NCBI GenBank assembly: GCA_965208575.1
Contig: CBDBOV010000001.1
Location: 384,001 to 448,000, forward strand
Length of the DNA stretch: 64,000 nt
From: Spirochaetia bacterium
Lineage (GTDB): Bacteria > Spirochaetota > Spirochaetia > SZUA-6 > Bin103
Direction: 5' to 3'
Part shown: positions 4,714-31,915 of the stretch, one piece after another
How positions within the stretch are numbered: the first letter of the stretch is position 1
Layout of the letters: the number at the start of each line of letters is the position of its first letter
Program-made: the position numbers and the translations under genes
Notes under the pieces: generated by a model
The model's database searches: none
What the model saw: the letters and a program-made list of their open reading frames with translations, nothing else
What the model was told of the DNA's origin: nothing

Positions 4714-5616
4714 TCAGCCCTCGTACTCGTCCCGCTCGCGGGCGAAGCGCTTGAGCTTGGCGAAGAAGTCCTCGTGGATGAAACGCGCGTCGATGTCCTC
4801 GTAGACGCGAATCGGCCGATTCGCTCCGGTGTGACGGTAGTGCATCGTGGGCTCGAACTCCGGCGCGGGCCGCCAGCTCCATGCGCCGCAGTCCGGGTAC
4901 ATCATCACGCCGACGCACGGAGAGTCGCCGAGCGAGCGATACGGCATGGCGGTCGGCCGCGTGTCGGCGTTGTGCTCCACCAGTTGATCGACCAGGTAGC
5001 GGCCGATCTTGCCGCATGGGTATACCTTGTCGAACAGTTCCGCGTAGCTCACCGGCATCCTGCGGTACACGTTCTGCGGGATCTGCCACACGTCGAGCCG
5101 CGAGCGCATGACGACGTTGGCGGCGGCGACGTCGTTGGACAGGTTGAATTCGCGCCCGCCGAGCGGCCACGGCCCGCCGCCGATCCAGATCACCACGACG
5201 TTGCGCGATTCGATGGCCGGCTCCAGGAGCAGCGCGGACGCCATGTCGGTGAGCGGACCGTAGAAGGCGACGTGCAGGGGCCGCGGGTCGTCCTTCAGGG
5301 CCTGCTCGATGATCAGGCGCGCGCCCGGCGAGTCGACCGCCGTGTGTTCGTCGGGCAGGGCATGCGCGCCGCCGTCGGCCACGTGGACCTGGTCGCGGAG
5401 ATCCATCAGGTCGAGCAGCAGCATGGTCTCATCGTGACTGTCGCGAAGACTGTGCGCCGACTTTCCGGTCCCGAAGTGGGCGGGCACGACACCGTGCAGC
5501 TCGAACGCCGGCGTCAGTATCGCGTGCACGATGGCGTACTGATCGTCCGCCTCGTTCTTGGCATCGGTATTCACGATTACGCGAATCTTCTTGTCGTCTG
5601 GGAACTCGTAGTGCAT
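4714..5616 (-). CDS. nucleoside hydrolase family protein
   Basis: IVNTDAKNEADDQYAI, GPLTD, GREFN and LGDS motifs of the IU-nucleoside hydrolase fold. Confidence 0.85.
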   Translation of the reverse strand: MHYEFPDDKKIRVIVNTDAKNEADDQYAIVHAILTPAFELHGVVPAHFGTGKSAHSLRDSHDETMLLLDLMDLRDQVHVADGGAHALPDEHTAVDSPGARLIIEQALKDDPRPLHVAFYGPLTDMASALLLEPAIESRNVVVIWIGGGPWPLGGREFNLSNDVAAANVVMRSRLDVWQIPQNVYRRMPVSYAELFDKVYPCGKIGRYLVDQLVEHNADTRPTAMPYRSLGDSPCVGVMMYPDCGAWSWRPAPEFEPTMHYRHTGANRPIRVYEDIDARFIHEDFFAKLKRFARERDEYEG

Positions 5617-5642
5617 CAAATCCTCTCCTCGGAGTCCGTATG

Positions 5643-6455
5643 TTACCCGTCGACCGCGGCAACGACGACCTCGATGCCGCGGCGCTCGAACTCGGCGCGC
5701 TCGTCCGCACCGATGCCGTCGTCGGTGATGAAGGTGTGGATCAGGTCCAGACCGCCGAGCGCCGCAAGGGCGGACGTGCCGAGCTTCGTGGAGTCGGCCA
5801 CCAGGTACACCTGCCGTGCCGAAGCGATCATGGCGCGCTTCACGTGGATGTCGCTGAATCCCGGGTAGGTGAGACCGGCGGCGAAGGAGACCCCGCCCGC
5901 GGCGAGAAACAGCTTGGCCACGTGAACCTTGTCGAAGAACGCGGCAGCCTTCTCGCCGGTCAGGGACAGCGTGGGAGCCTTGAACTCGCCGCCGGTGACC
6001 ATGACCTCGAAACCGAAGTGGCCTCCCAGCAGCAGCGCGATATTCAGGGCATTGGTAACCACCGTGAGGTTGCGCTTGCCCTCCAGGTGCTTGGCCGCCT
6101 CGGTGACGGTGGAACCGGCGTCCAGGATGATGGTATCGCCGTCACTGACAAACTCCGCGACCTTGCGGCCAATGGCGCTCTTGCGCTGCATGTTCCCGGT
6201 GTGTTGCAGGCTGAGACTGCGCACCTGGTCGGGTATGCTCCTGAGGAACGCTCCGCCGTACTCGCGGATGATCAGGCCATCCTCCTGCAGGCGGTCCAGG
6301 TCCAGGCGGATCGTGGGTTCCGAGACGGCGAATACCCGGCTGAGTTCGCTCACCCGCGCGCTGCCCTCCTCCTGCAGCAACTCGAGGATCCTCACCCGCC
6401 GCCGCTGGCCAAGGAGATTCGCCTGCCCCTTGCTCGTATTCGCCTTGTTTGCCAT
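5643..6455 (-). CDS. DeoR/GlpR family transcriptional regulator
   Basis: HTH VSEPTIRLDL, YGGA, ILDAGST, VVTN, ADSTK. Confidence 0.95.
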   Translation of the reverse strand: MANKANTSKGQANLLGQRRRVRILELLQEEGSARVSELSRVFAVSEPTIRLDLDRLQEDGLIIREYGGAFLRSIPDQVRSLSLQHTGNMQRKSAIGRKVAEFVSDGDTIILDAGSTVTEAAKHLEGKRNLTVVTNALNIALLLGGHFGFEVMVTGGEFKAPTLSLTGEKAAAFFDKVHVAKLFLAAGGVSFAAGLTYPGFSDIHVKRAMIASARQVYLVADSTKLGTSALAALGGLDLIHTFITDDGIGADERAEFERRGIEVVVAAVDG

Positions 6456-21913: not shown

Positions 21914-22246
21914 GTGAGGGAAATCTCGGTGTTCTCGGTGCGTGACCTGCGGGTGAGTTCAAGTGCGCTGGTGCGTGAAGTTGAGGCCGGGCAGGTCTCC
22001 ATCATCACCAAGCGAGGCAAGCCGGCCGTACTGGCGTTGCCGTTCGGGAGCCGGCTCCTGGATGTGGGCGTCGACAAGGATCTGGCACTCGCCCTGTTCG
22101 AACGCCGGCTGATCACCATGGCGAAGGCCGCCAAGCTCGCCGGCGTCACCCAGGACGTATTCATGGACCTGATTGCCGAAAGCGGACTGGTTGCGGTCGA
22201 CTACCCTGCAGAGGAGTTGGCGGACGAGTTGCGCCTCGACATTTGA
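21914..22246 (+). CDS. antitoxin, Phd/YefM N-terminal domain plus UPF0175-like C-terminal domain
   Basis: FSVRDLR...IITKRGKPAV; LALALFERRLITMAKAAKLAG; RBS GAGGAGG (ORF track starts at 21899). Confidence 0.8.
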   Translation: MREISVFSVRDLRVSSSALVREVEAGQVSIITKRGKPAVLALPFGSRLLDVGVDKDLALALFERRLITMAKAAKLAGVTQDVFMDLIAESGLVAVDYPAEELADELRLDI

Positions 22247-22734
22247 GATCGCTGATCGTCTCCGATGCCGGCCCATTGATTGCACTGTCACGGATCGGGC
22301 GACTCTCCCTGCTACCGGATCTGTTCGCAACCGCGGCCGTTCCGCGCACCGTGGTCCACGAGCTTCGGCTCGACGAGCCGCGCGCGGGGGTAGCTGCGCT
22401 GGCCGCGGCCGTGCGGGACCAGACTTGGTTGCGCTCGATGGATTCGCCGGACGAAGTATCGATTCCCGGCCTCGACGCCGGCGAGTCCGCAGCGATCCGT
22501 CTCGCTGTCTGCCTGAATTGCACGCTGCTGATCGATGAGCGTCGAGGACGGAGTATTGCGCGGCACCGCGGTATACCGGTCATCGGTATCGGGCGCGTTC
22601 TCATCGCGGCAAAGCAGCGGGGGCGGATCGAGTCGGTAGCGGTTGCCCTTGCCGAACTGAGAGGAGCCGGTTACCGGCTGTCGGACCGTATCTGCTCGCA
22701 GCTTCTCACCATCGCCGGAGAACGACCGACGTAG
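22243..22734 (+). CDS. PIN-domain toxin, DUF3368 family
   Basis: IVSDAGPLIAL, LDAGESAAI, LLIDERRGR; 4-bp overlap with the antitoxin. Confidence 0.88.
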   Translation: MRSLIVSDAGPLIALSRIGRLSLLPDLFATAAVPRTVVHELRLDEPRAGVAALAAAVRDQTWLRSMDSPDEVSIPGLDAGESAAIRLAVCLNCTLLIDERRGRSIARHRGIPVIGIGRVLIAAKQRGRIESVAVALAELRGAGYRLSDRICSQLLTIAGERPT

Positions 22735-22779
22735 CAGGTTCAACGGCACGCGTCACCCGAGTGCCGCTCATGACCGCGG

Positions 22780-24396
22780 TTACCATGGAGCGACCGGTTC
22801 CATGTCCCAGGCCTCGACGACCGTGGCTAGCGCCGCGCCGCCGGATGCAAACAGCCGGACCTCGGTGCTGTCGGCGCGGGTGGGGTACACGCGCTGCGTA
22901 AGGGACTGGCGGCCGTTGGCGAACACCTCGATCACCGAGCGGTCGATGAACACGCGCAGTTCCAGGGCTTCCCCGGCGGCGAGCCGGAAGGGGGCGGCCT
23001 GCACCGCGCCGGTGGTACGGAAGGCCTCCACGCGGGCCGCGTCGTAGTCCCAGTACTCCAGGTTCTTCGCCAGGCTGGACCGGCGGAAGTCGACCTGCAG
23101 CCTTCGCTCGCCCGGAACGTAGGAGATGGCGGTCTGCTCGCTGCCGTTCGGTGCGCACAGCACCTTCACCCCCACCGCGGTCGCGTCGTGGGGTTCGATC
23201 CGTAGGAACAGTTCGAGGCTGTTCCCCGAGATTCCCGGAAGAATTATCTCGTACCCCGAGGGTACGGCTGATACCCTCTGCCGGCGCGGGTTGAAGCGCA
23301 GGGTCTCCAGCTCCGGCGCGGGAGCGATGGCAAGCGTGCCGTCGTCGGCCAGGGACAGCACCCGCGGCAGGCTCACCACCGAGGCCCAGGCGAGCAGGTT
23401 GCGCTCTTCCGGTGCTGACTCCGCGGCGCGTTCGTAGCCGTACAGGGTGGCGGCGCCGGGCCGGAAGTCGGCCATCCAGCCGAACATGATGTTGCGACCG
23501 CGGTCGTCGATCAGCGATTCCGGCGCCGAGAGCTGGCCGCCGATCCAGCTCATCCTCCCGTGCTGCTCCGGCGTGAAGTGCCGGTCGCGGTAGCTGCCCA
23601 GGTAGTAGTGGGTGGTGTTGCGGTAGGGGCGGTGGCAGTGCATCAGCAGCATGTGACGTGGAGTCGCCCCGGTTGGCGACTCCTTGCCGATCGGGAAGAA
23701 ATCGGGGCAGGCGGCGTCCTCCGCTTCCAGGGTCCACTCGCGGCGCGACCGGTAGAACGGGCCCCGGTACTCCCAGTGGACCAGGTCGGGCGAGGTGAAC
23801 AGGCTGGTGCTGTCGCCCGCGTAGCCCGGGCGCCGGTTCTTGTTGCCGATCAGCGCGTGGTAGGTGCCGTCCCCCGACTCCTCGTACCACCCGGCGGGGT
23901 CGAACACCACGAATTCGTCGCCCTCCCGGTGCAGCGGGATGACCGGGTTCTGCGGCAGCTCGCGCCACTCGTCCAGGTCGTCGTCCTCGGCCACCGCGAT
24001 GCAGGTGCCCTGGTGCGGGACGTGGTAGATCAGGGTCGGCCGCGGCGCGTTCTTGATCGCACCGCCGCTGTAGATGCCCATAGGGGTCGACCCGTCGCGC
24101 CTGGGCCTGATGGCCGGCGGGTGCTGGATCCAGTGCACCAAGTCGCGGCTGGAGACGTGGTCCCACACGGCGACCCAGAACTCCTCGCCGGGCCGGCGGG
24201 GATGCGGGATCGGCTCCCGCGCCAGGTAGAACAGGTGGTAGCGGCCCCTCCAGAACAGCGCGCCGTTGGGATCGTTGAAGAACCCCTCCGGCGGCACGAG
24301 GTGATAGCGCGGCCGGTGCGGATCCTGCCAGATCAACTCTCGCAACCGGCGGGCACCGCGGATCAGTGCCTGAATGTCGTCACTTGTGGTGCTCAT
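22780..24396 (-). CDS. glycoside hydrolase family 32 protein (variant catalytic motifs)
   Basis: RPRYH, NDPNG, YHLFY, SRDLVHW, YSG, FDP, CPDFF, SLPRVL, FIDRSVIEVF. Confidence 0.88.
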   Translation of the reverse strand: MSTTSDDIQALIRGARRLRELIWQDPHRPRYHLVPPEGFFNDPNGALFWRGRYHLFYLAREPIPHPRRPGEEFWVAVWDHVSSRDLVHWIQHPPAIRPRRDGSTPMGIYSGGAIKNAPRPTLIYHVPHQGTCIAVAEDDDLDEWRELPQNPVIPLHREGDEFVVFDPAGWYEESGDGTYHALIGNKNRRPGYAGDSTSLFTSPDLVHWEYRGPFYRSRREWTLEAEDAACPDFFPIGKESPTGATPRHMLLMHCHRPYRNTTHYYLGSYRDRHFTPEQHGRMSWIGGQLSAPESLIDDRGRNIMFGWMADFRPGAATLYGYERAAESAPEERNLLAWASVVSLPRVLSLADDGTLAIAPAPELETLRFNPRRQRVSAVPSGYEIILPGISGNSLELFLRIEPHDATAVGVKVLCAPNGSEQTAISYVPGERRLQVDFRRSSLAKNLEYWDYDAARVEAFRTTGAVQAAPFRLAAGEALELRVFIDRSVIEVFANGRQSLTQRVYPTRADSTEVRLFASGGAALATVVEAWDMEPVAPW

Positions 24397-24432
24397 GGCT
24401 TGAGCGACAGAATGCCGATCGAGGACCGGTCA

Positions 24433-24999
24433 TCAGGGAAACACGGCGCCGAGCACCCTCTGCATCACCGGGAACAGGACCGTGGCGGCTAACAGCACGG
24501 TCAGCAGCCAGCGCGTCTGTACGGTGATCTCCTTGCGCAGGTCCGCCCGTACCTCGCCGATCTCCGCCCGTACCTTGCCGATCTCCGTGCTGAGGTCCGC
24601 CCGTACCTTGCCGATCTCCGTGCTGAGGTCCGCCCGCACGCTGCCGATCTCGGTGGCCATGCCGGTAAGCTGTTGCTGCTGATCGAGCAACTGCTTCTGC
24701 AGGTCCAGGAAACCGGCGTGCATCTCGCTGCGCAGGGCGTCAAAGCCGGTGTGCATCTCGCGACGCAGGGTGTCGAGACCGGTATGCATCTCGCCACGCA
24801 GGTCGTCATGACCGGCGTGCATCTCGGAGCGCAGGGCGTCACGCGACTCTGCGACATGGCGCGCAAAGCGCTCCTCGACCACGGCGATCAGGTCTTGCCG
24901 CTGTTCGTCGCCGAACTGGTGCAGAAGATCCACCAGGGAGTCGGTGGCCGGGTCGCCCAACTTTTCGCGCAGTTCGCGTGGCACCGAGATGACCGCCAT
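24433..24999 (-). CDS. coiled-coil repeat membrane protein (Bdr/LA_3696/DUF1640-like)
   Basis: VPRELREKLG..SLVDLL N-terminus, 11-aa repeats, C-terminal TRWLL plus a TM helix. Confidence 0.75.
   Translation of the reverse strand: MAVISVPRELREKLGDPATDSLVDLLHQFGDEQRQDLIAVVEERFARHVAESRDALRSEMHAGHDDLRGEMHTGLDTLRREMHTGFDALRSEMHAGFLDLQKQLLDQQQQLTGMATEIGSVRADLSTEIGKVRADLSTEIGKVRAEIGEVRADLRKEITVQTRWLLTVLLAATVLFPVMQRVLGAVFP
24542..24840. repeat. two in-frame 33-bp tandem repeat blocks
   Basis: tccgcccgtaccttgccgatctccgtgctgagg exact x2 (24563-24628) plus partial copies; (g/a)tgcatctcg at 24718, 24751, 24784 and 24817. Confidence 0.9.
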
Positions 25000-25010
25000 G
25001 GCTCGACGCC

Positions 25011-25039
25011 AGCTTACGCCGTCGGGCGGCCGGCGTCAA
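25011..25039 (-). promoter_or_regulatory. sigma70-type promoter of the repeat-protein gene
   Basis: TTGACG-17 bp-TAAGCT, 11 nt before the ATG at 24999; abuts the IS target duplication. Confidence 0.55.
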
Positions 25040-25170
25040 CAATTCGCATTGACTCATCGAAAATCTAACCGTAGCGAAAGCATGCCTCATCTAAAAATCT
25101 AACCGAACGGGCTGGACCTTCCGGGTCCGGTTGGAGCCTCTCCGAGGGACGTGAGGAGGTTCCGGAGGAG

Positions 25171-26445
25171 ATGGGGTTGAAGATGAGTTCAAGGCGAGAG
25201 CTCACCGAGCAGCACGCGCAGCGGTATCGTCGGGCGGGCAAGAAGGAGAAGGGGCGCATACTCGACGAGTTCGTCGAGTCGACCGGGTACCAGCGCAAGT
25301 ACGCGATCCATCTGTTGACCTGGTGGGGACGGACCCGCATGGTGCGAGTCGACGGCACACTGGTGAAGCTGGTGGTCGGGCGTCCGCGGCCTGCCCAGCG
25401 CCGCGTGCGACCGCGGCGCTACGACCAGGAGGTGCTGGTCGCTCTGAAGCTGATCTGGTACGTGTTCGACTGCATGTGCGGCAAGCGCCTGGTGGTCGTG
25501 CTGCGCACCATGCTGCCGACGCTGGAGTCGTTCGGCGAGATCGAGCTGACCGCAGCGGTGCGCGGCAAGCTGCAGACCATCAGCGCCGCGACCATCGACC
25601 GGCTGCTGCAGCAGGAGCGCGCACGGCTGCGCCTGAAGGGTCGCACGCACACCAAGCCGGGCACCCTCCTGAAGGATCAGATCGCGATCCGAACCTTCGC
25701 TGACTGGGACGAGCAGGAGCCGGGCTTCTTCGAGATCGACTTGGTGGGCCATGAAGGCGGCAACGCGTCAGGCGACTTCTGCCACACGCTCACCATCACC
25801 GACGTTGACACCGGCTGGGTCGACCTGTACGGCGTGCAGAACAAGGCGCAGCGCTGGACCCACGAGGCGATCGACGCTGCCCGGCAGAGCCTGCCGATCG
25901 TGATGCGGGGGATCGACACCGACAACGGCAGCGAGTTCATCAATCATCATTTGCTGCGCTATTGCGAAGCGCACGGCATCACGTTCACTCGGGGTCGCCC
26001 GCATCGCAAGAACGACACCTGCTACGTCGAGCAGAAGAATGGCCACGTGGTGCGACGGGCGGTCGGCCACCTGCGTTACGACACCGACCGGGAACTGGCT
26101 GCCCTCAACGCGATATACCGCCCGCTGTGCCTGCTGGTGAACTTCTTCTATCCCTCGGTGAAGCTGGTGAAGAAAACCCGCACCGGCAGCAAGGTGCGCC
26201 GCATCTATGACGACCCGCAGACGCCGTATCACCGCATGCTGGCCTCCGAGTCGGTGAGCGAGAAGGTGAAGAACCGCCTCAAGCAGCAGTACGCGACGTT
26301 GAATCCGGTCGCCCTCAAGCGCGAGCTGACCAGGTTGACCGAGGATCTGCTGCAGCTGAACGTCAGCAAGACCGCCAAGGCCGCACCAAGCACGGTGCAA
26401 ACACCGAGCGAGGAGCGTGGTGGCAGCGGTCGCACGGCAAAATGA
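25171..26445 (+). CDS. DDE-type (rve/integrase core) transposase
   Basis: RYRRAGKKEKGRILDEF, CGKRL, ISAATIDRLL, EIDLV, DTDNGSEF, YVEQKN. Confidence 0.92.
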   Translation: MGLKMSSRRELTEQHAQRYRRAGKKEKGRILDEFVESTGYQRKYAIHLLTWWGRTRMVRVDGTLVKLVVGRPRPAQRRVRPRRYDQEVLVALKLIWYVFDCMCGKRLVVVLRTMLPTLESFGEIELTAAVRGKLQTISAATIDRLLQQERARLRLKGRTHTKPGTLLKDQIAIRTFADWDEQEPGFFEIDLVGHEGGNASGDFCHTLTITDVDTGWVDLYGVQNKAQRWTHEAIDAARQSLPIVMRGIDTDNGSEFINHHLLRYCEAHGITFTRGRPHRKNDTCYVEQKNGHVVRRAVGHLRYDTDRELAALNAIYRPLCLLVNFFYPSVKLVKKTRTGSKVRRIYDDPQTPYHRMLASESVSEKVKNRLKQQYATLNPVALKRELTRLTEDLLQLNVSKTAKAAPSTVQTPSEERGGSGRTAK

Positions 26446-26569
26446 CCCTCTCAGGCGGGTCTGACGGTCGATAATCGGAGAATGGGCGGTCAGCGATGAG
26501 AAAACGTCGCCTCAGCCGCGCTGTAAGGCCCCTCCACGACACGAGGTGGTGTCTGGATACCCCCGTGTC
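26415..26569 (+). repeat. structured direct repeat, copy A
   Basis: Core 26505-26569 is near-identical to 28477-28541; weaker similarity extends about 90 bp upstream. Confidence 0.8.
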
Positions 26570-26611
26570 TATGCATAACCATGCAATTCAGTGCAACTTT
26601 ATCCGCGACCG

Positions 26612-28160
26612 TAAGCCGGGTGGCGGAGTCCCGGTGCCGTCCCTGCAGTGCCTCGGCGAGGCGATTGCGGACCGCTGCCAGCCGGCTGCGTACCCGCCTG
26701 ATGCTCTTTTCCAGGGCCCGGCGCACCGGTTCACGACCCGTGCGTCGGGCTCCGGCGGCGCAAGGTCATGGCTCGGCAGCGCGTCAAGGTTGAACTGCTC
26801 GCGCAGGTACTTGAAGAAGTTCTCCTGCGACCAGCGCGAGAACATGGCGCCGGCGACCTGCGCCAACGGCATCTGCGGGTGCGTGGTGATCACCGCCACC
26901 TGACGACCGTTGGCCAGACGCCGCCGGATCTGGCGCACCACCAGCCCGTTGCGCAGCATGATCGGCTGCTCGGCCAGATCAACCGCAGTCGTGCTGGTGC
27001 CGGCGGGACCATGGATCGGTACCTCGAAGGTGTGGAAGTCTTCCGGCAGCCAGTCCGCGCCGTTGAAGTTCTTGTGCCAGGTGATGCAGGCGATGCCACG
27101 CCGGGCCAGGCGCTTGAACAGGTCCGGGCTCCAGCCCTCGCGGTCGAACACCAGGGTCAGCTGCGGGGTACCGGCCGGTGCTCCGGTCAGGTCGGGGGCC
27201 GCTTCGGTCACCACCCCCAGGTGCTGCAACTGCGGCACCACGTCGTGCTTGATCGCATTCACCGGCTTCGGGTCCAGCGCCTTGTGCAGGCACAGCAGCG
27301 GTGCGCCGCCGAGGGCGTTGATCCAGTAGCTCACCGACGCCGGCAGACACAGCTTCTGGCGTGCGACGAAGTGTTTCGGCAACCGCCCGTTGCGCCCGGT
27401 GTACACCTTCACGTGGCCATCCACGGCCAGCGTCGTCCAGTCGTCGTCGTGCTCGCTGGCCCAGGTACGCGCCAGTACCGATTGCCAATCGCGCACGGTG
27501 TGCTCGGCGCTGGCCAGCAGCCTGATCTTGCGGCGCAGCGTCTTGGTCTCCGGACAGCGGTCGAGGCCGAGGATGGCGCCCCACTCGCCGGGTGCCTGGT
27601 AGCGCAGGCTCTCGGGGTTGCGCACCCGGGCCAGGGTCATGCAGGCGACGAACAGGAGGATGGTGGTCAGGCCGTAGAATCCGGCCGGCAGGCGGAACAG
27701 GCGGTTGGCGGCGGTGAGCAGGCCCTCGCGCAGCAGCATCGCCAGTGCGGCCAGCACGCCGCCGCCAGCGACCGCGTGGGCGGGCTCGACGAACGCTGGT
27801 GTGGCCTCGGTCAGCAGGCCGGCTCTGGCGAGCGTGCGGCGTTCCACGTCGCGCGCCGCGCGGCCCATGGGCGCGTGCTTGTCGCGGGCGTCGCGGCTGG
27901 CGCGCTCAGTGGCGACCGCCGGGTCGCTGACCGCGGCGGCGGTGCTGACCGGGTGATCAGTGGTGGTGGCCGCCGGCGCAACCTCGGCGCTGGCGGCGGG
28001 CTCCCGGGTGGGATCTGTGATGACGCCGGCGCGGCGGTTCTCGTTGAAGGTGCTCACCGGGATGCCGAGTTCGCGAGCGCAGGCTGAGCCGCTCATCCCG
28101 GAAGCGAGCAGCTTGGCTGCCTGGTCCGCCATCTCGGCGTCGTCCACGGTGGCCTCCACG
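26612..28160 (-). pseudogene. internal fragment of a second, large DDE transposase (frameshifted, apparently truncated at both ends)
   Basis: LAVDGHVKVY, YWINALG, FDREGWS and RWSQENFFK motifs; 1-nt deletion near 26728 (VVN-[P]-VRRALEKSIRR continues in another frame); homology ends near 26612. Confidence 0.75.
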
Positions 28161-28389
28161 GCACCGCGCCGGCTGACTCCGGTCGGGCTACGCCCTCCGT
28201 CCGTCAGCGGGGTACAGCATCTCCTCCGCCCCGTTCGATCCCGACGGCTCCGGTGTCGCAACCTCGTCGCCTACCCCGTCCCGGCGGTGGGGAATTGTCA
28301 TGACCCTGCCCCGGGCAACGCACCTCGGTGCAGTTGTCCGGGGCGCCTCGCTCCGTGCGCTCCGCAGCAACCTGCGCGCCGCTCGCGGC

Positions 28390-28541
28390 GTGGGCGGCAT
28401 CACCCGGCTCGGCAAATGACTTCTGAGCGTCTCTGACGCCCGTATATCCGTGAGCCAGACGGTCGGCGTCAAGAAATGTCGCCTCAGCCGCGCTGTAAGG
28501 CCTCTCCGCGACACGAGGTGGTGTCTGGACATCCCCGTGTC
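28390..28541 (+). repeat. structured direct repeat, copy B
   Basis: gtcgcctcagccgcgctgtaaggcc..gacacgaggtggtgtctgga..ccccgtgtc is shared with copy A. Confidence 0.8.
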
Positions 28542-28710
28542 ACCAGCACCGAAGTCGCCTCCAGACCCGTCCGCCCCCTCTTCGGTCAGCGACACGACAC
28601 GGCACCGACCACCTCCCTGCCGTTGACGCCTCCTCATCCGCGCCGACCAACCAGATACGCCCCCGGTCGCGTTGGTGTGCTTGAATCAACCCGGCCGGTC
28701 GCCCAGCAGC

Positions 28711-28727
28711 CTATCCACTTATCCACA
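28711..28727 (+). promoter_or_regulatory. DnaA-box-like tandem (CTATCCACT/TTATCCACA) near the IS right end
   Basis: Perfect TTATCCACA at 28719-28727. Confidence 0.45.
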
Positions 28728-28846
28728 ATTTATGAGTCTCCCCCCTCGCGCTCCCCCCTCGTTCTCCGCCTCCCTTTCGGTTAGATTCTTACGTGAGGCA
28801 CGCTCACCGTAAGGTTAGATTTTTACGTGAGGCAATAGGCAATTCA

Positions 28847-28881
28847 CAACCGGGTCAACCGGGTCAACCGGGCCACCGGGC
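28847..28881. repeat. short 9-bp tandem repeat (caaccgggt)
   Basis: caaccgggt x2, caaccgggc, caccgggc. Confidence 0.7.
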
Positions 28882-28923
28882 CAGCCCAGGCATAGCGCAA
28901 TCAGGAAGTGTTCGCGTGGTAAG

Positions 28924-30654
28924 GTGGCGGTGATGGTACGGGGGCGCGCCGGATGGCGAGGCCGGGCAGGGAGGGCGGCACTGGTGTGCCTGGCCATCAC
29001 GGTCGCGGCGGCGGGGGCGGAGGTGCGGCTGGCTACCTGCGACGTGGATGCGCGCCTGTGTCCGGAGGCGACCGGGCTCGTCCACGCGCACGCGCCGGCG
29101 GAGGGCACCCACGACGACTTCTCCGGCGGCGTGTCGGTGGGCGACTTCAACCGCGACGGCTGGCAGGACCTGTTCGTGGTGACCGGCGGCGCAGGGCCCG
29201 ACCGCCTCTACCTGAACCGGGGCGACGGCACCTTCCGGGAGGCCGCGGAGCGGGCGGGCATCGCGACCGTGCACCGCGGTCACGGCTCGGTGGTGGGCGA
29301 CGTCGACGGGGACGGCTGGCTGGACATCTTCGTGACCAGTTTCGGGCCGACCGCCGGCGCGCCTGCGATGGCGGGCCACCACCTGCTGTGGCTCAACCTG
29401 GGCAGCCGGCGCGGCGGGGTGCTGGCCGACGGCACGCCGCTGTTCCGCAACATCGCGCTGCCGGCGCTGGCCGCGACCACCTCTCCCGAGCAGCCCTCCG
29501 GCATGGGGGCGGCGTTCGGCGACTACGACCGCGACGGCGACCTGGACCTGGCGGTCGTTGCCTGGCTGCGCGATGCCTCAGGCAGCGTGCTGCTGAACAA
29601 CCAGGGCATCGACGAGTGGACCGGCCTGCCGCGCTTCCTGAACGCCACGCGGCGGGCACGCCTGTTCGACACCGACATGCACGGCTTCACCCCGCACATC
29701 GTCGACGTCGACGGCGACCGCTGGCCGGAAATCCTGGTGGCGGCCGACTTCGGCACCAGCCGCCTGTACCGCAACAACCGCGACGGTACCTTTACCGACG
29801 TAACGGACCAGGCGCACGTGGGGCTGGACACCAACGGCATGGGCAGCGTGCTCGCCGACGTGGACAACGACGGCCTGCTCGACTGGTACGTCACCTCGAT
29901 CTGGACCACCTCGCCGTTCGAGAACCCGCCCAACAACGGCAACTACCTGTACCGCAACCTGGGCGGGCTCGCCTTCGACCCGGGTCCCGAGACGCCCCGC
30001 CCGCTGGCCCGCGGCGGCTGGGGCTGGGGCACGGCCGCGGCCGACCTGGACCACGACGGCCTGGTGGAGTTGATTGCAACCAACGGCTCCGAGGACCGCA
30101 ACACCGACGAACGCCGGGAATGGCTGGAAGACGCCACCCGCGTGTTCCACAACCGCGGCGCCGACGGCTTCCGGGACGTGGCGCCGGAGGCCGGCCTCGA
30201 CCACCGCGGCCAGGGGCGCGGGCTGGTGCGCTTCGACTACGACAACGACGGCGACCAGGACATCCTGATCGTCAACAGCCGCGGCGTGCCCACCCTGGTC
30301 CGCAACGACGGCGGCACGGCATCCGGCAACTGGCTGTGGGTGGAGCTGCGTCCGGCGCGCGGCCTGCCGGTGCCGCCGGACGGCGTCGGCGCCGTGGTGC
30401 GCGTGCAAGCCGGCGGCGCCACGCAGACCCGCCACATCGAGACCGGCGGCGGCTACCTCGGCTCCTCGGAGCTGAGCGCCCACTTCGGGCTCGGCGGCGC
30501 GACGGAAATCGACGAGGTGCGCGTCGAGTGGTCGGACGGCTGTGATACCTCGCTCTACGGGGTGGCGGTCAACCGCCGACTGCGGCTCGAACGGCCGTTC
30601 GGCTGCATGATGGAAGCCGCGGTCCTGGACGCCGCCGTCCTCCCGGCGCGGTAG
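28924..30654 (+). CDS. CRTAC1-family protein (FG-GAP/VCBS repeats plus ASPIC/UnbV C-terminal domain), secreted
   Basis: Repeated GDFNRDGWQDL, GDVDGDGWLDI and DYDNDGDQDI motifs; GNWLWVEL, AHFGLG...VEWSDG. Confidence 0.9.
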   Translation: MAVMVRGRAGWRGRAGRAALVCLAITVAAAGAEVRLATCDVDARLCPEATGLVHAHAPAEGTHDDFSGGVSVGDFNRDGWQDLFVVTGGAGPDRLYLNRGDGTFREAAERAGIATVHRGHGSVVGDVDGDGWLDIFVTSFGPTAGAPAMAGHHLLWLNLGSRRGGVLADGTPLFRNIALPALAATTSPEQPSGMGAAFGDYDRDGDLDLAVVAWLRDASGSVLLNNQGIDEWTGLPRFLNATRRARLFDTDMHGFTPHIVDVDGDRWPEILVAADFGTSRLYRNNRDGTFTDVTDQAHVGLDTNGMGSVLADVDNDGLLDWYVTSIWTTSPFENPPNNGNYLYRNLGGLAFDPGPETPRPLARGGWGWGTAAADLDHDGLVELIATNGSEDRNTDERREWLEDATRVFHNRGADGFRDVAPEAGLDHRGQGRGLVRFDYDNDGDQDILIVNSRGVPTLVRNDGGTASGNWLWVELRPARGLPVPPDGVGAVVRVQAGGATQTRHIETGGGYLGSSELSAHFGLGGATEIDEVRVEWSDGCDTSLYGVAVNRRLRLERPFGCMMEAAVLDAAVLPAR

Positions 30655-30861
30655 GGCGCTCGCGGGGGAGGCCGCACCCGCGGCCGGTGGCGTAACTTCT
30701 TCCCCATCAAGTGCGGCGCCGCATCCCGGCCGGCTGTGTTGCGCGTCGCTCACCTGCACCCGATGGGCTCGTTTGCCGCGGCTTGCAGCCGGATGCCGCG
30801 GCGCTCTCGGTGCGGCGCCCCACTCCGACACCGGATGTCGTCTCCGAACGGCTCGTTCCGG

Positions 30862-30890
30862 TTGACAGGGCCGCGGCGTTCGGCTATCAA
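30862..30890 (+). promoter_or_regulatory. sigma70-type promoter
   Basis: TTGACA-17 bp-TATCAA(TAAT) upstream of the ATG at 30926. Confidence 0.5.
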
Positions 30891-30925
30891 TAATCGGCCC
30901 TTCGGAAGGGCCTTCCCGTGACCGT

Positions 30926-31915
30926 ATGCGAGCCTACCTGATCAGACGACTGTTGCTGGTGATTCCGTCGGTGTTCCTCATCAGCGCCATCATCTTCCTG
31001 CTGATGCGCTTGGTGCCGGGCGACATCGTCGACGGGATCATGGCGCGCATGGAGGAGTCGGGCGAGGTGTCCGAGATCGACGAGACCATCCTGTCGCGCC
31101 AGTTCGGCCTCGATGCACCGCTGATCGTGCAGTACGGCCGCTTCCTGGGCGTGGTGAAGCAGAAGGACGGCGTGTTCGCCGGCCTGGCGCAGGGCCACCT
31201 GGGCATTTCCTGGTTCACGCGCGAGCCGGTCACCGAGAGAGTGCTCGCCAAGCTGCCGGTGACCGTCGAGCTGGGCTTCTTCAGCCTGATCATCTCGCAG
31301 CTCATCGCCATACCGATAGGGGTGATCTCGGCGCTGCGCCAGGACACGGCGGCCGACTACCTGGGGCGCAGCTTCGCCATCCTGTTCATCTCGATCCCGA
31401 GCTTCTGGCTGGGCACCGTGGTGATCCTGTTCGCTTCGATCTGGTGGGGCTACCTGCCGCCGATCCGGTGGACTTCCTTTGCCGACGACCCGATCAAGAA
31501 CCTGGGCAACATCATGGTCCCGGCGGTGATCAATGGGCTGCTGATGGCGGGCGGCACCATGCGCATGATGCGCACCATGATGCTGGAGGTGCTGCGCCAG
31601 GACTACGTGCGCACGGCGTGGTCGAAGGGCCTCCGCGAGCGGATCGTGGTGTACCGCCACGCCCTGCGGAACGCCCTGATTCCGGTGGTCACCATGGTCG
31701 GGCTGCAGATACCGATCCTGATCGGCGGCACGGTGATCATCGAGCAACTGTTCACCCTGCCGGGCATGGGGCAGATGATCATCGACGCGCTGCGGCAGCG
31801 CGACTACCCGACGGTCAACGGCGTCATGGTGATTACCTCGTTCACCATCGTCGTGGTCAACCTGCTGGTCGACATCACCTACGGGATCATCGATCCGAAG
31901 GTCAAGTACACGTAG
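30926..31915 (+). CDS. ABC transporter permease (OppB/DppB-like)
   Basis: YLIRRLL, VPGD, QDYVRTAWSKGL, HALRNALIP, DPKVKY. Confidence 0.93.
   Translation: MRAYLIRRLLLVIPSVFLISAIIFLLMRLVPGDIVDGIMARMEESGEVSEIDETILSRQFGLDAPLIVQYGRFLGVVKQKDGVFAGLAQGHLGISWFTREPVTERVLAKLPVTVELGFFSLIISQLIAIPIGVISALRQDTAADYLGRSFAILFISIPSFWLGTVVILFASIWWGYLPPIRWTSFADDPIKNLGNIMVPAVINGLLMAGGTMRMMRTMMLEVLRQDYVRTAWSKGLRERIVVYRHALRNALIPVVTMVGLQIPILIGGTVIIEQLFTLPGMGQMIIDALRQRDYPTVNGVMVITSFTIVVVNLLVDITYGIIDPKVKYT

Follow-up and report, generated by a model that had tools for sequence, protein, structure and literature searches.

The omegaRNA of IS200/IS605 elements is a structured, overlapping RNA at the 3' side of the TnpB/IscB transposon gene. 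Repetitive extragenic palindromic (REP) sequences, bacterial interspersed mosaic elements (BIMEs) and REPINs (REP doublets forming hairpins) are short, G+C-rich palindromes behind genes, often paired, to which the stabilisation or termination of transcripts and a role as recombination hot spots are ascribed; REPs are present in tens to hundreds of extragenic chromosomal copies and are linked to RAYT genes. Insertion sequences (IS) of the IS110/IS1111 type have DEDD transposases, no ordinary inverted ends, and RNA loops matching target and donor. A published study links IS110/IS1111 elements to a bridge RNA or seekRNA (PMC11187229). Here we describe a non-coding module that is present twice in an IS of a Spirochaetia bacterium (contig CBDBOV010000001.1, positions 384,001 to 448,000 of the forward strand; this stretch of 64,000 nucleotides is referred to as the window). 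An earlier note on the window had read the two copies as a twin multi-hairpin element, and as a candidate for an IS-encoded RNA or a single-stranded DNA recombination site. In our comparison the same module was found in unrelated mobile elements of one bacterial family, and we favour, at a probability of about 0.5, the reading that it is a portable cis-acting tail cassette, which would consist of a hairpin and, in most variants, an intrinsic-terminator-like stem.

Module copy 1 (26442-26582, + strand) begins at the stop codon of the transposase gene and contains hairpins H1 (26493-26510), H2 (26510-26528) and H3 (26538-26569). Copy 2 (28416-28557, + strand) contains H1 at 28466-28482, H2 at 28482-28500 and H3 at 28510-28541. 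A covariance model built from relatives matched copy 1 with 95.2 bits (E value 7.5e-20) and copy 2 with 96.7 bits (3.4e-20). The two copies form a direct repeat with a spacing of 1972 nucleotides (nt), and 63 of 68 positions (93%) are identical between 26502-26569 and 28474-28541, as against 43 of 84 (51%) in the preceding 84 nt (26415-26501 for copy 1). The homology of copy 1 to copy 2 stops at 26569. The repeat identity and the model matches confirm the two copies where the earlier note had placed them, and the three hairpins per copy could be read as it had described; in each copy, RNAfold returned H3 as a stem of 13 pairs that leaves two bases unpaired, and the two differences in H3 do swap G-C and G.U pairs. 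Folded alone, H3 was more stable than mononucleotide shuffles of it (z -2.75 for copy 1 and -2.33 for copy 2), whereas the full 130-nt elements were no better than dinucleotide shuffles on the + strand (z -0.86 and -0.61). The further claim that the wobbles pair only on the + strand did not hold by folding energy. For copy 2, the fold is stronger on the minus strand (-54.1, z -2.32) than on the plus strand (-45.3), and the H3 energies are mixed, being -17.5 (+) and -15.3 (-) for copy 1 and -16.9 (+) and -19.7 (-) for copy 2.

The model (R1) was made from an alignment (A1) of ten tails from six further genomes and was then used in genome searches; transposases 88-91% identical to that of the window exist in ENA assemblies (P0124-P0129) and lie outside this alignment, which stayed shallow. 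The module was identified in 11 of the 24 genomes of the bacterial family and in 13 of the 92 genomes of the order, the two matches outside the family being weak. In the window's own genome, 58 of 59 matches represent the two copies in each of 29 copies of the IS; the sole match outside it (G000:C4:1278024-1278157, 29.1 bits, E 0.002) is weak. The context of 33 matches outside the window was surveyed. In ten cases the module follows an rve gene directly and in the same orientation; nine of these are in the clade with 72-85% identical transposases and one is at locus L192, where the module adjoins a pseudogene of a ~51-56% identical transposase. Six are inverted behind the rve gene of a second clade with ~50% identity, and the remaining 17 are at loci without an rve gene. 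Among these 17, the matches in genome G001 are situated directly behind the third of three tandem Phage_integrase ORFs (open reading frames) of a recombinase-in-trio-like element, in which gene end and module are tandemly duplicated 403 nt apart. The matches in G018, G021, G014 and G020 belong to the right end of IS21-type IstA/IstB elements, the module being inverted between istB and the terminal repeats at the right end in L199 and L236; L191, L202 and L195 could be assigned to no element type. The module was absent from relatives with 73-78% identical transposases (L065-L069 and L084), from IS copies of the ~50% clade in G001, G007, G009 and G019, and from all JGI relatives (at most 58% identity), which have short tails and mostly lie on contigs of 1.4-3 kb. 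The covariance-model search proposed in the earlier note thus found the module in the bacterial family, across unrelated elements. Since it is present in IS21 and three-integrase elements, inverted in the second rve clade and missing from many relatives, the suggested link to the transposase family is not upheld: the module is restricted to one bacterial family and is not tied to the rve transposase family.

Some further observations were made on these elements. The three-integrase element of G001 (L205 1-5184) has three overlapping Phage_integrase ORFs and five near-identical copies, and L209 holds a form of it with a single module. The IS21-family element of G018 (L236 283-3522) encodes an IstA with rve and Mu-transpos_C_2 domains as well as IstB, and has several 24-nt terminal repeats. 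Solo IS21 right ends are numerous and form a 15-kb repeat thicket in L208. A repeat unit of ~600 nt that starts with TGCGA and ends in the module was considered as an ORF-less group II intron; it has no Rfam match inside and is the IS21 right end. Pieces of group II introns (domains D1-D4; RF02001, RF01998, RF02003) are present near module copies in L184 (2466-2758, minus strand) and L208 (1722-2693, plus strand), and no link between them and the module was found at these two loci.

The tails of the rve elements are highly variable and have taken up many inserts of unrelated origin, among them palindromes, small ORFs and pieces of genes. In the ~50% clade, the module is located in an extra segment of 350-430 nt, which is flanked by direct repeats of varying length (14-47 nt); L182 has this segment and L240, whose genes are 91% identical to those of L182, is module-less. 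In one copy of this clade, the transposase gene is followed by one for a ribbon-helix-helix protein of 61 aa (L239 1751-1936; FitA-like, E 1.1e-5, just below the cut-off). Only the C-terminal half of this protein is left in the tails of L240, L211 and L182, and the module-bearing segment occupies the place of the N-terminal half of the gene. IS relatives of two other genomes have a different tail (L065-L069, tails at ~5240-5820; L084 2794-3600; L212) with three spaced CCGTTACGTAACGG palindromes and a conserved ORF of 93-95 aa, for which there was no Pfam match above the cut-off.

The extra segment, which is missing from close module-less relatives and flanked by direct repeats, would fit a module that is, or once was, a short cassette capable of recombining or of moving non-autonomously, which colonises dispensable tails of mobile elements and then travels with these, either resembling a miniature inverted-repeat transposable element (MITE) or REP or acting as a single-stranded DNA hairpin site. 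Such a cassette would also fit the four kinds of element, the two orientations, the sharp common 3' boundary just behind H3 and the occurrence of the module inside tandem duplications of two unrelated elements. Nevertheless, we consider it rather unlikely. No convincing terminal inverted repeats were seen by eye at its borders, the direct repeats around it differ in length and are not a regular target duplication, and in its own genome the module is never found alone, all matches except the weak one lying inside the IS. Its tree mostly follows element type, and no Y1/RAYT or integron-type enzyme is linked to it, although no genome-wide search for these was made. One candidate for MITE terminal inverted repeats, a 9/11 match found by eye, is within chance for the G+C content.

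The stretch shared between elements is 60-90 nt long, 80-91% identical, and ends a few nt from the 3' side of H3. The core is thus conserved at this level where the transposase genes are ~68-70% identical at the DNA level or unrelated. Between paralogues, the H2-H3 block is also better kept than the upstream flank (93% versus 51% in the window, 86% versus 66% in G001); in the duplicated units of the integrase element, all parts are 84-95% identical. A FastTree phylogeny of 32 distinct modules, based on a short alignment and with supports not assessed, separated them mostly by element type, with some mixing. No conserved ORF was seen in the core, of which one frame was read by eye; this frame is interrupted by a stop in L176. 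A functionless remnant of the IS tail that is carried along by active elements and kept uniform through gene conversion would agree with the many unrelated inserts in these variable tails, with the grouping of copies 1 and 2 in the tree, and with the identity of the 29 IS copies, which leaves no time for selection within the genome. The conservation of a core of 65-90 nt across diverged or unrelated transposase genes, and its better preservation than the upstream flank within duplicated units, make such a neutral origin very improbable.

What is conserved appears to be sequence rather than pairing. The inner stem of H3 (GG.GGTRT / AYACC.CC) recurs in most copies, mainly as sequence, while H1, H2 and the outer part of H3 are not kept in relatives. 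The 25 pairs of the earlier note, which had taken the differences between the copies as structure-preserving, were tested on nine window-type sequences (A4) aligned without structure in MAFFT, with 500 shuffles for comparison. In total, 73.8% of cells were paired versus 72.0% in shuffles (36 of 500 reaching the observed value), and 3 pairs were changed on both sides where 2.6 were expected (286 of 500). The outer H3 pairs hold in two of the nine sequences, which are the window copies themselves; for H1, 65% of cells are paired. Two other measures, the covariation score (0.147 versus 0.110; 2 of 500) and the number of cells changed on both sides (7 versus 3.9; 12 of 500), did exceed most shuffles, mainly because of one G-C/C-G difference in H1 between the IS and the integrase element. 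Structure-preserving change was not supported by this set. RNAalifold gave -6.24 kcal/mol and 11 pairs on A1. In the 23 of 32 rows that fit the fixed pattern of the inner H3 stem (the nine dropped rows include window copy 2), 143 cells were Watson-Crick pairs, 13 G.T, 2 A.C and 3 other. The sole variable pair had GT, GC, AT and AC in 11, 4, 6 and 2 of these rows, compared with 11.1, 3.9, 5.9 and 2.1 under independence, and hence behaves as two independent columns. Over 31 distinct H3 segments, the mean energies were -12.9 (+) and -13.4 (-), with a mean z of -0.8. The module is a conserved hairpin-capable sequence, and selection on pairing is neither shown nor excluded. The Rfam search that had been suggested gave no family match: in the window (22000-31000) there were two chance-level matches, the best with an E value of 0.072 and far below the gathering score, and in 12 related loci only the group II intron pieces outside the module were found. 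Of the 'possibly undescribed structured element' proposed earlier, there remains a conserved non-coding element in an rve-type IS, absent from Rfam and with a hairpin-capable core in relatives; H1 and H2 are not conserved.

Conservation of sequence, including two symmetric palindromes, together with a variable H3 pair that fits independent columns, is also what a double-stranded DNA binding site would show. Here, a host or accessory protein used by several mobile elements would bind the module irrespective of orientation and, for example, regulate or assist transposition. The presence of the module in both orientations relative to adjacent genes and its limitation to one bacterial family point in the same direction, as does a nearby DnaA-box-like pair (see below), a protein-site-like motif in these tails. 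No candidate protein has been identified, however, and two module types with position-equivalent hairpins of unrelated sequence favour structure over a fixed sequence. In addition, stem cells with G.T outnumber those with A.C (13 versus 2), though as base frequencies predict. We regard a protein site as unlikely on balance.

The two module types differ in front of H3. The commoner variant reads …GAGGATCGCCGTCACGGCGTTTTCT…GAGGTGGTRTCCCGATACCCCC… and carries a terminator-like stem of five G+C pairs with a 3-nt loop, followed by TTTTCT. On the module strand, this terminator-like CGCCGTCACGGCG with TTTTCT was located at 700-712 in L236 (IS21) and at 1562-1574 in L182 (~50% rve clade), and in both it faces against the genes of the element. 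H2 of the window type and the terminator-like stem of the other type are at equivalent positions and unrelated in sequence. No sigma-70-like promoter was predicted in 24900-29000 or in three related loci. Metatranscriptomic contigs (run X1, 0.09 of words; run X2) compared with the IS were mostly 85-95% identical relatives of both transposase genes.

From these sequence comparisons we propose that the portable cassette has a conserved core of 65-95 nt ending in a G/C-clamped hairpin, with a terminator-like stem and T-run ahead of this hairpin in most variants, and that it is carried in either orientation by unrelated elements, in the interval that separates the last gene from the distal end. 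A co-oriented module would stop or stabilise the element's own transcript, and an inverted one would block inward antisense transcription. The long G+C hairpin may in addition be a preferred breakpoint for duplication, capture and exchange, which would explain why tandem duplications arose twice independently, why the capture junction is at 26569/26570 and why the 3' homology boundary is sharp. The module would thereby spread by recombination among mobile elements, and its duplication in the window IS would be a matter of chance. The window variant has lost the T-run; it may retain the hairpin only, and its present activity is doubtful.

Several results weigh against the tail cassette. Six terminator-like sites were predicted in 24900-29000, none of them within either window copy, and there was none in the 72% clade variant L176; H3 itself has no T-run behind it. 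The metatranscriptomic contigs have a depth of 0 over copy 1, and such contigs cannot show transcript ends, strand or level. The palindromes GGTATC-CC-GATACC and CGCCGT-C-ACGGCG fit a double-stranded protein-binding site equally well. The conservation could in part reflect hitch-hiking and gene conversion, and window copies 1 and 2 do group together in the module tree. Consensus folding is weak on both strands (-9.3 forward and -10.4 reverse for the window type, -3.5 and -4.3 for the other type, on a model-made alignment), so that covariation gives no backing to a function based on the hairpin. All five measures did exceed 500 shuffles when 32 distinct rows were aligned by fitting to the model, an alignment that leans to its own structure, with 88.1% versus 78.7% of cells paired and 9 versus 4.3 pairs changed on both sides, leaving room for some selection on pairing. 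A different function for the core is conceivable, namely that of a lineage-specific cis-signal read as an RNA or single-stranded DNA hairpin by a shared factor of the host or of mobile elements. The two rve IS clades, the IS21 element and the three-integrase element would each have acquired this signal for self-control or for escaping a host response; the repeated tandem duplications would then reflect selection for dosage. We consider this improbable.

The twin arrangement is best understood by comparison with a sister genome. Its IS (L061, transposase 85% identical) has two module matches 328 nt apart without an insert. Each L061 copy is preceded by a '…ggcaaactga' gene-end motif, and the window shares the boundary of the second copy; the stretches behind the first and second copy are 80% identical over 178 nt. 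The twin copies are thus paralogues: a unit comprising the terminal ~30 nt of the gene, the module and a spacer was duplicated head to tail. In the window, the end of the first duplication unit and a pseudo 'gene end' (…ggcaaatga) lie ahead of copy 2 at 28318-28415 (+), a stretch that aligns by eye with the end of unit 1 in L061 (5505-5592). Between the copies, a Transposase_29 (PF21804) gene fragment is located on the minus strand at 26613-28150 (mechanical ORF 26588-28261). It matches profile positions 6-360 of 562 only (Pfam, E 5.2e-69), encodes 514-557 aa as against 766-774 aa in relatives, is truncated on its 3' side and is without element ends. The capture junction is at 26569/26570, directly behind H3 of copy 1; most of the first spacer was replaced, and homology with the sister IS resumes near 28318. 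The 43 nt between copy 1 and the fragment (26570-26612) are relatively A+T-rich and covered neither by copy 2 nor by homology to the captured gene. Fourteen copies in the sister genome share DNA homology with 26613-28150 only, i.e. with the coding part and without element ends, and no free-standing Transposase_29 copy was found in a DNA search of the whole own genome. An independently inserted IS nested between the copies could therefore be ruled out. Since L061 shows the duplication without an insert and the insert is 3'-truncated, end-less coding DNA, we conclude that a gene fragment was captured behind H3 of copy 1, and that the twin arose when captured DNA separated the halves of a tandem duplication, and is no designed pair. 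The ancestor had two units of ~330 nt, in each of which the final ~30 nt of the gene were followed by a module of ~130 nt and a spacer, a state that the sister genome still shows. A ~1.5-kb fragment of an unrelated transposase gene was captured directly behind copy 1 H3 in the window lineage, and the composite IS then multiplied to 29 copies.

The IS context noted earlier was confirmed and sharpened to 25045-28839 by the inverted ends and by duplications of CAATT on either side (25040-25044 and 28840-28844). These limits give an IS of 3795 bp, supported by repeat analysis and a whole-genome DNA search. The left end (25045-25111, +) comprises the terminal inverted repeat together with AAAATCTAACC, repeated twice internally, and the right end (28772-28839, +) the terminal inverted repeat and two GGTTAGATTyTTACGTGAGGCA repeats, the inverted repeats proper spanning 25060-25111 and 28772-28823. 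Both module copies lie between these ends and thus move with the IS as one unit. A DNA search of the own genome returned 29 matches of 3744-3821 bases at ~100% identity (L031-L059), which start at base 5-8 of a query beginning at 25040. Both ends were located by script in 26 of these and the right end alone in three, and 25 of the 26 complete copies have identical 5-bp flanks. The element is an active insertion sequence. Its transposase (P0001, 424 aa, 25171-26445, +) matches Pfam rve above the cut-off (E 4.6e-9), whereas NCBIfam matches to IS481, IS30 and IS3 were all far below it; among plasmid relatives, identity does not exceed 47%, and several of these carry the annotation ISNCY family transposase. 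With an rve catalytic domain, terminal inverted repeats, a short target duplication and multiple copies, the whole is an ordinary rve/DDE IS of the ISNCY-annotated group with an unusually long composite tail, situated in a G+C-rich genome.

Insertion shows a one-sided target preference, in that the five bases left of the duplication are GTCAA in 11 and NNCAA in 19 of the 26 complete copies (CAA at positions -8 to -6); no comparable base preference was seen on the right side. Such a preference might be expected of an IS-encoded functional RNA (guide, bridge or regulatory), or a single-stranded DNA site, working with the rve transposase. The start of the module at the stop codon, its co-orientation in the 72-85% clade, where it is probably part of the transposase transcript, the stability of H3 in the window (z -2.3 to -2.75) and the pair counts above shuffles on the model-fitted alignment would also agree with such a role, which is nonetheless very unlikely. 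By reading (no systematic complementarity search was made), neither GTCAA nor its complement is conserved in the module: copy 2 and one of the G001 copies have it, and copy 1 does not. The complement TTGAC is instead found in the left end of the IS, where it forms bases 6-10 (25050-25054). The module is carried by unrelated elements and inverted in the sister rve clade, and relatives such as L065-L069 (73-74%) and ~50% clade copies in G001, G007 and G009 do without it. The structure described earlier has no excess pairing in relatives and no Rfam match. The classical inverted ends and the 5-bp duplications in nearly all complete copies likewise speak against a guide or bridge role.

Two adjoining 9-mers in the right subterminal region, ~110 nt from the IS end (28711-28727, +), read CTATCCACT and TTATCCACA and resemble DnaA boxes. 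TTATCCACA at 28719-28727 is the sole exact match within the 64-kb window. The pair is also present in L061 (~5896-5915), L063 (~5599-5616) and L182 (1268-1287, minus strand), so that it is conserved in both rve IS clades and wider in distribution than the hairpin module. A host-factor site near an IS end is known for IS50, and the pair is possibly a site of that kind. Just left of the insertion site, 33-nt tandem repeats (24500-24870) lie within a minus-strand ORF (24433-24999) with a sub-threshold match to an apolipoprotein-like repeat.

Taken together, the results suggest a family-restricted variant of the hairpin and terminator modules of mobile-element tails and no RNA-guided system. If this is correct, the finding is chiefly a caution: when two paralogues within an IS differ in a 'compensatory' manner, a guide RNA is not necessarily behind it, and comparison with a modest number of relatives can already tell an RNA linked to the transposase from a portable module of the tail. 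On the positive side, one family of large-genome, G+C-rich, spirochaete-like bacteria that are probably sponge-associated does have a non-coding cassette of ~70-130 nt, common to DDE IS of two kinds and a tyrosine-recombinase element and present in either orientation. To our knowledge, sharing of a non-coding module across elements has rarely been documented, and a brief literature search found no published description of one common to rve IS, IS21 and integrase-trio elements. The module may offer a handle on transcription insulation by mobile elements, or on a common host factor.

Compared with the bridge and seek RNAs, the module is alike in being a sizeable, hairpin-capable non-coding region beside a transposase gene inside an IS. 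It differs in that the IS is of the rve/DDE type with inverted ends and 5-bp duplications, not DEDD, and in that unrelated elements have it in common, in both orientations and with no conserved match to the target motif. Like omegaRNA, it is a non-coding element at the 3' side of a transposon gene, but rve and Transposase_29 are the only family matches among the IS ORFs, with no TnpB/IscB, and the module is ~270 nt from the IS end, not overlapping, with no scaffold-plus-guide layout seen. An imperfect hairpin with unpaired bases and direct repeats flanking inserted DNA recall the attC sites of integrons. However, there was no tyrosine recombinase among the scanned ORFs of the window IS and no R/L box layout or cassette array, the G001 integrases are three in tandem and not in an IntI/attI/cassette layout, and the flanking repeats reach far past the hairpin, as for a true tandem duplication. 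The resemblance to REP/BIME sequences lies in a G+C-rich palindromic unit behind genes, paired in the window; unlike these, the module is found only in mobile elements, with 58 of 59 own-genome matches in one IS. The common variant, with its G+C stem and TTTTCT between the last gene and the element end, resembles the intrinsic terminators of IS ends, whereas the window copies are without a T-run, and the best-conserved part, H3, stands behind the terminator-like stem and also has none. As for the IS itself, it shares with ISNCY-annotated rve elements a single transposase of ~410-424 aa and inverted ends with internal repeats. Relatives elsewhere are mostly 1.4-2 kb (contig sizes) with short tails, and the long tail, the twin module and the captured fragment are specific to a small clade.

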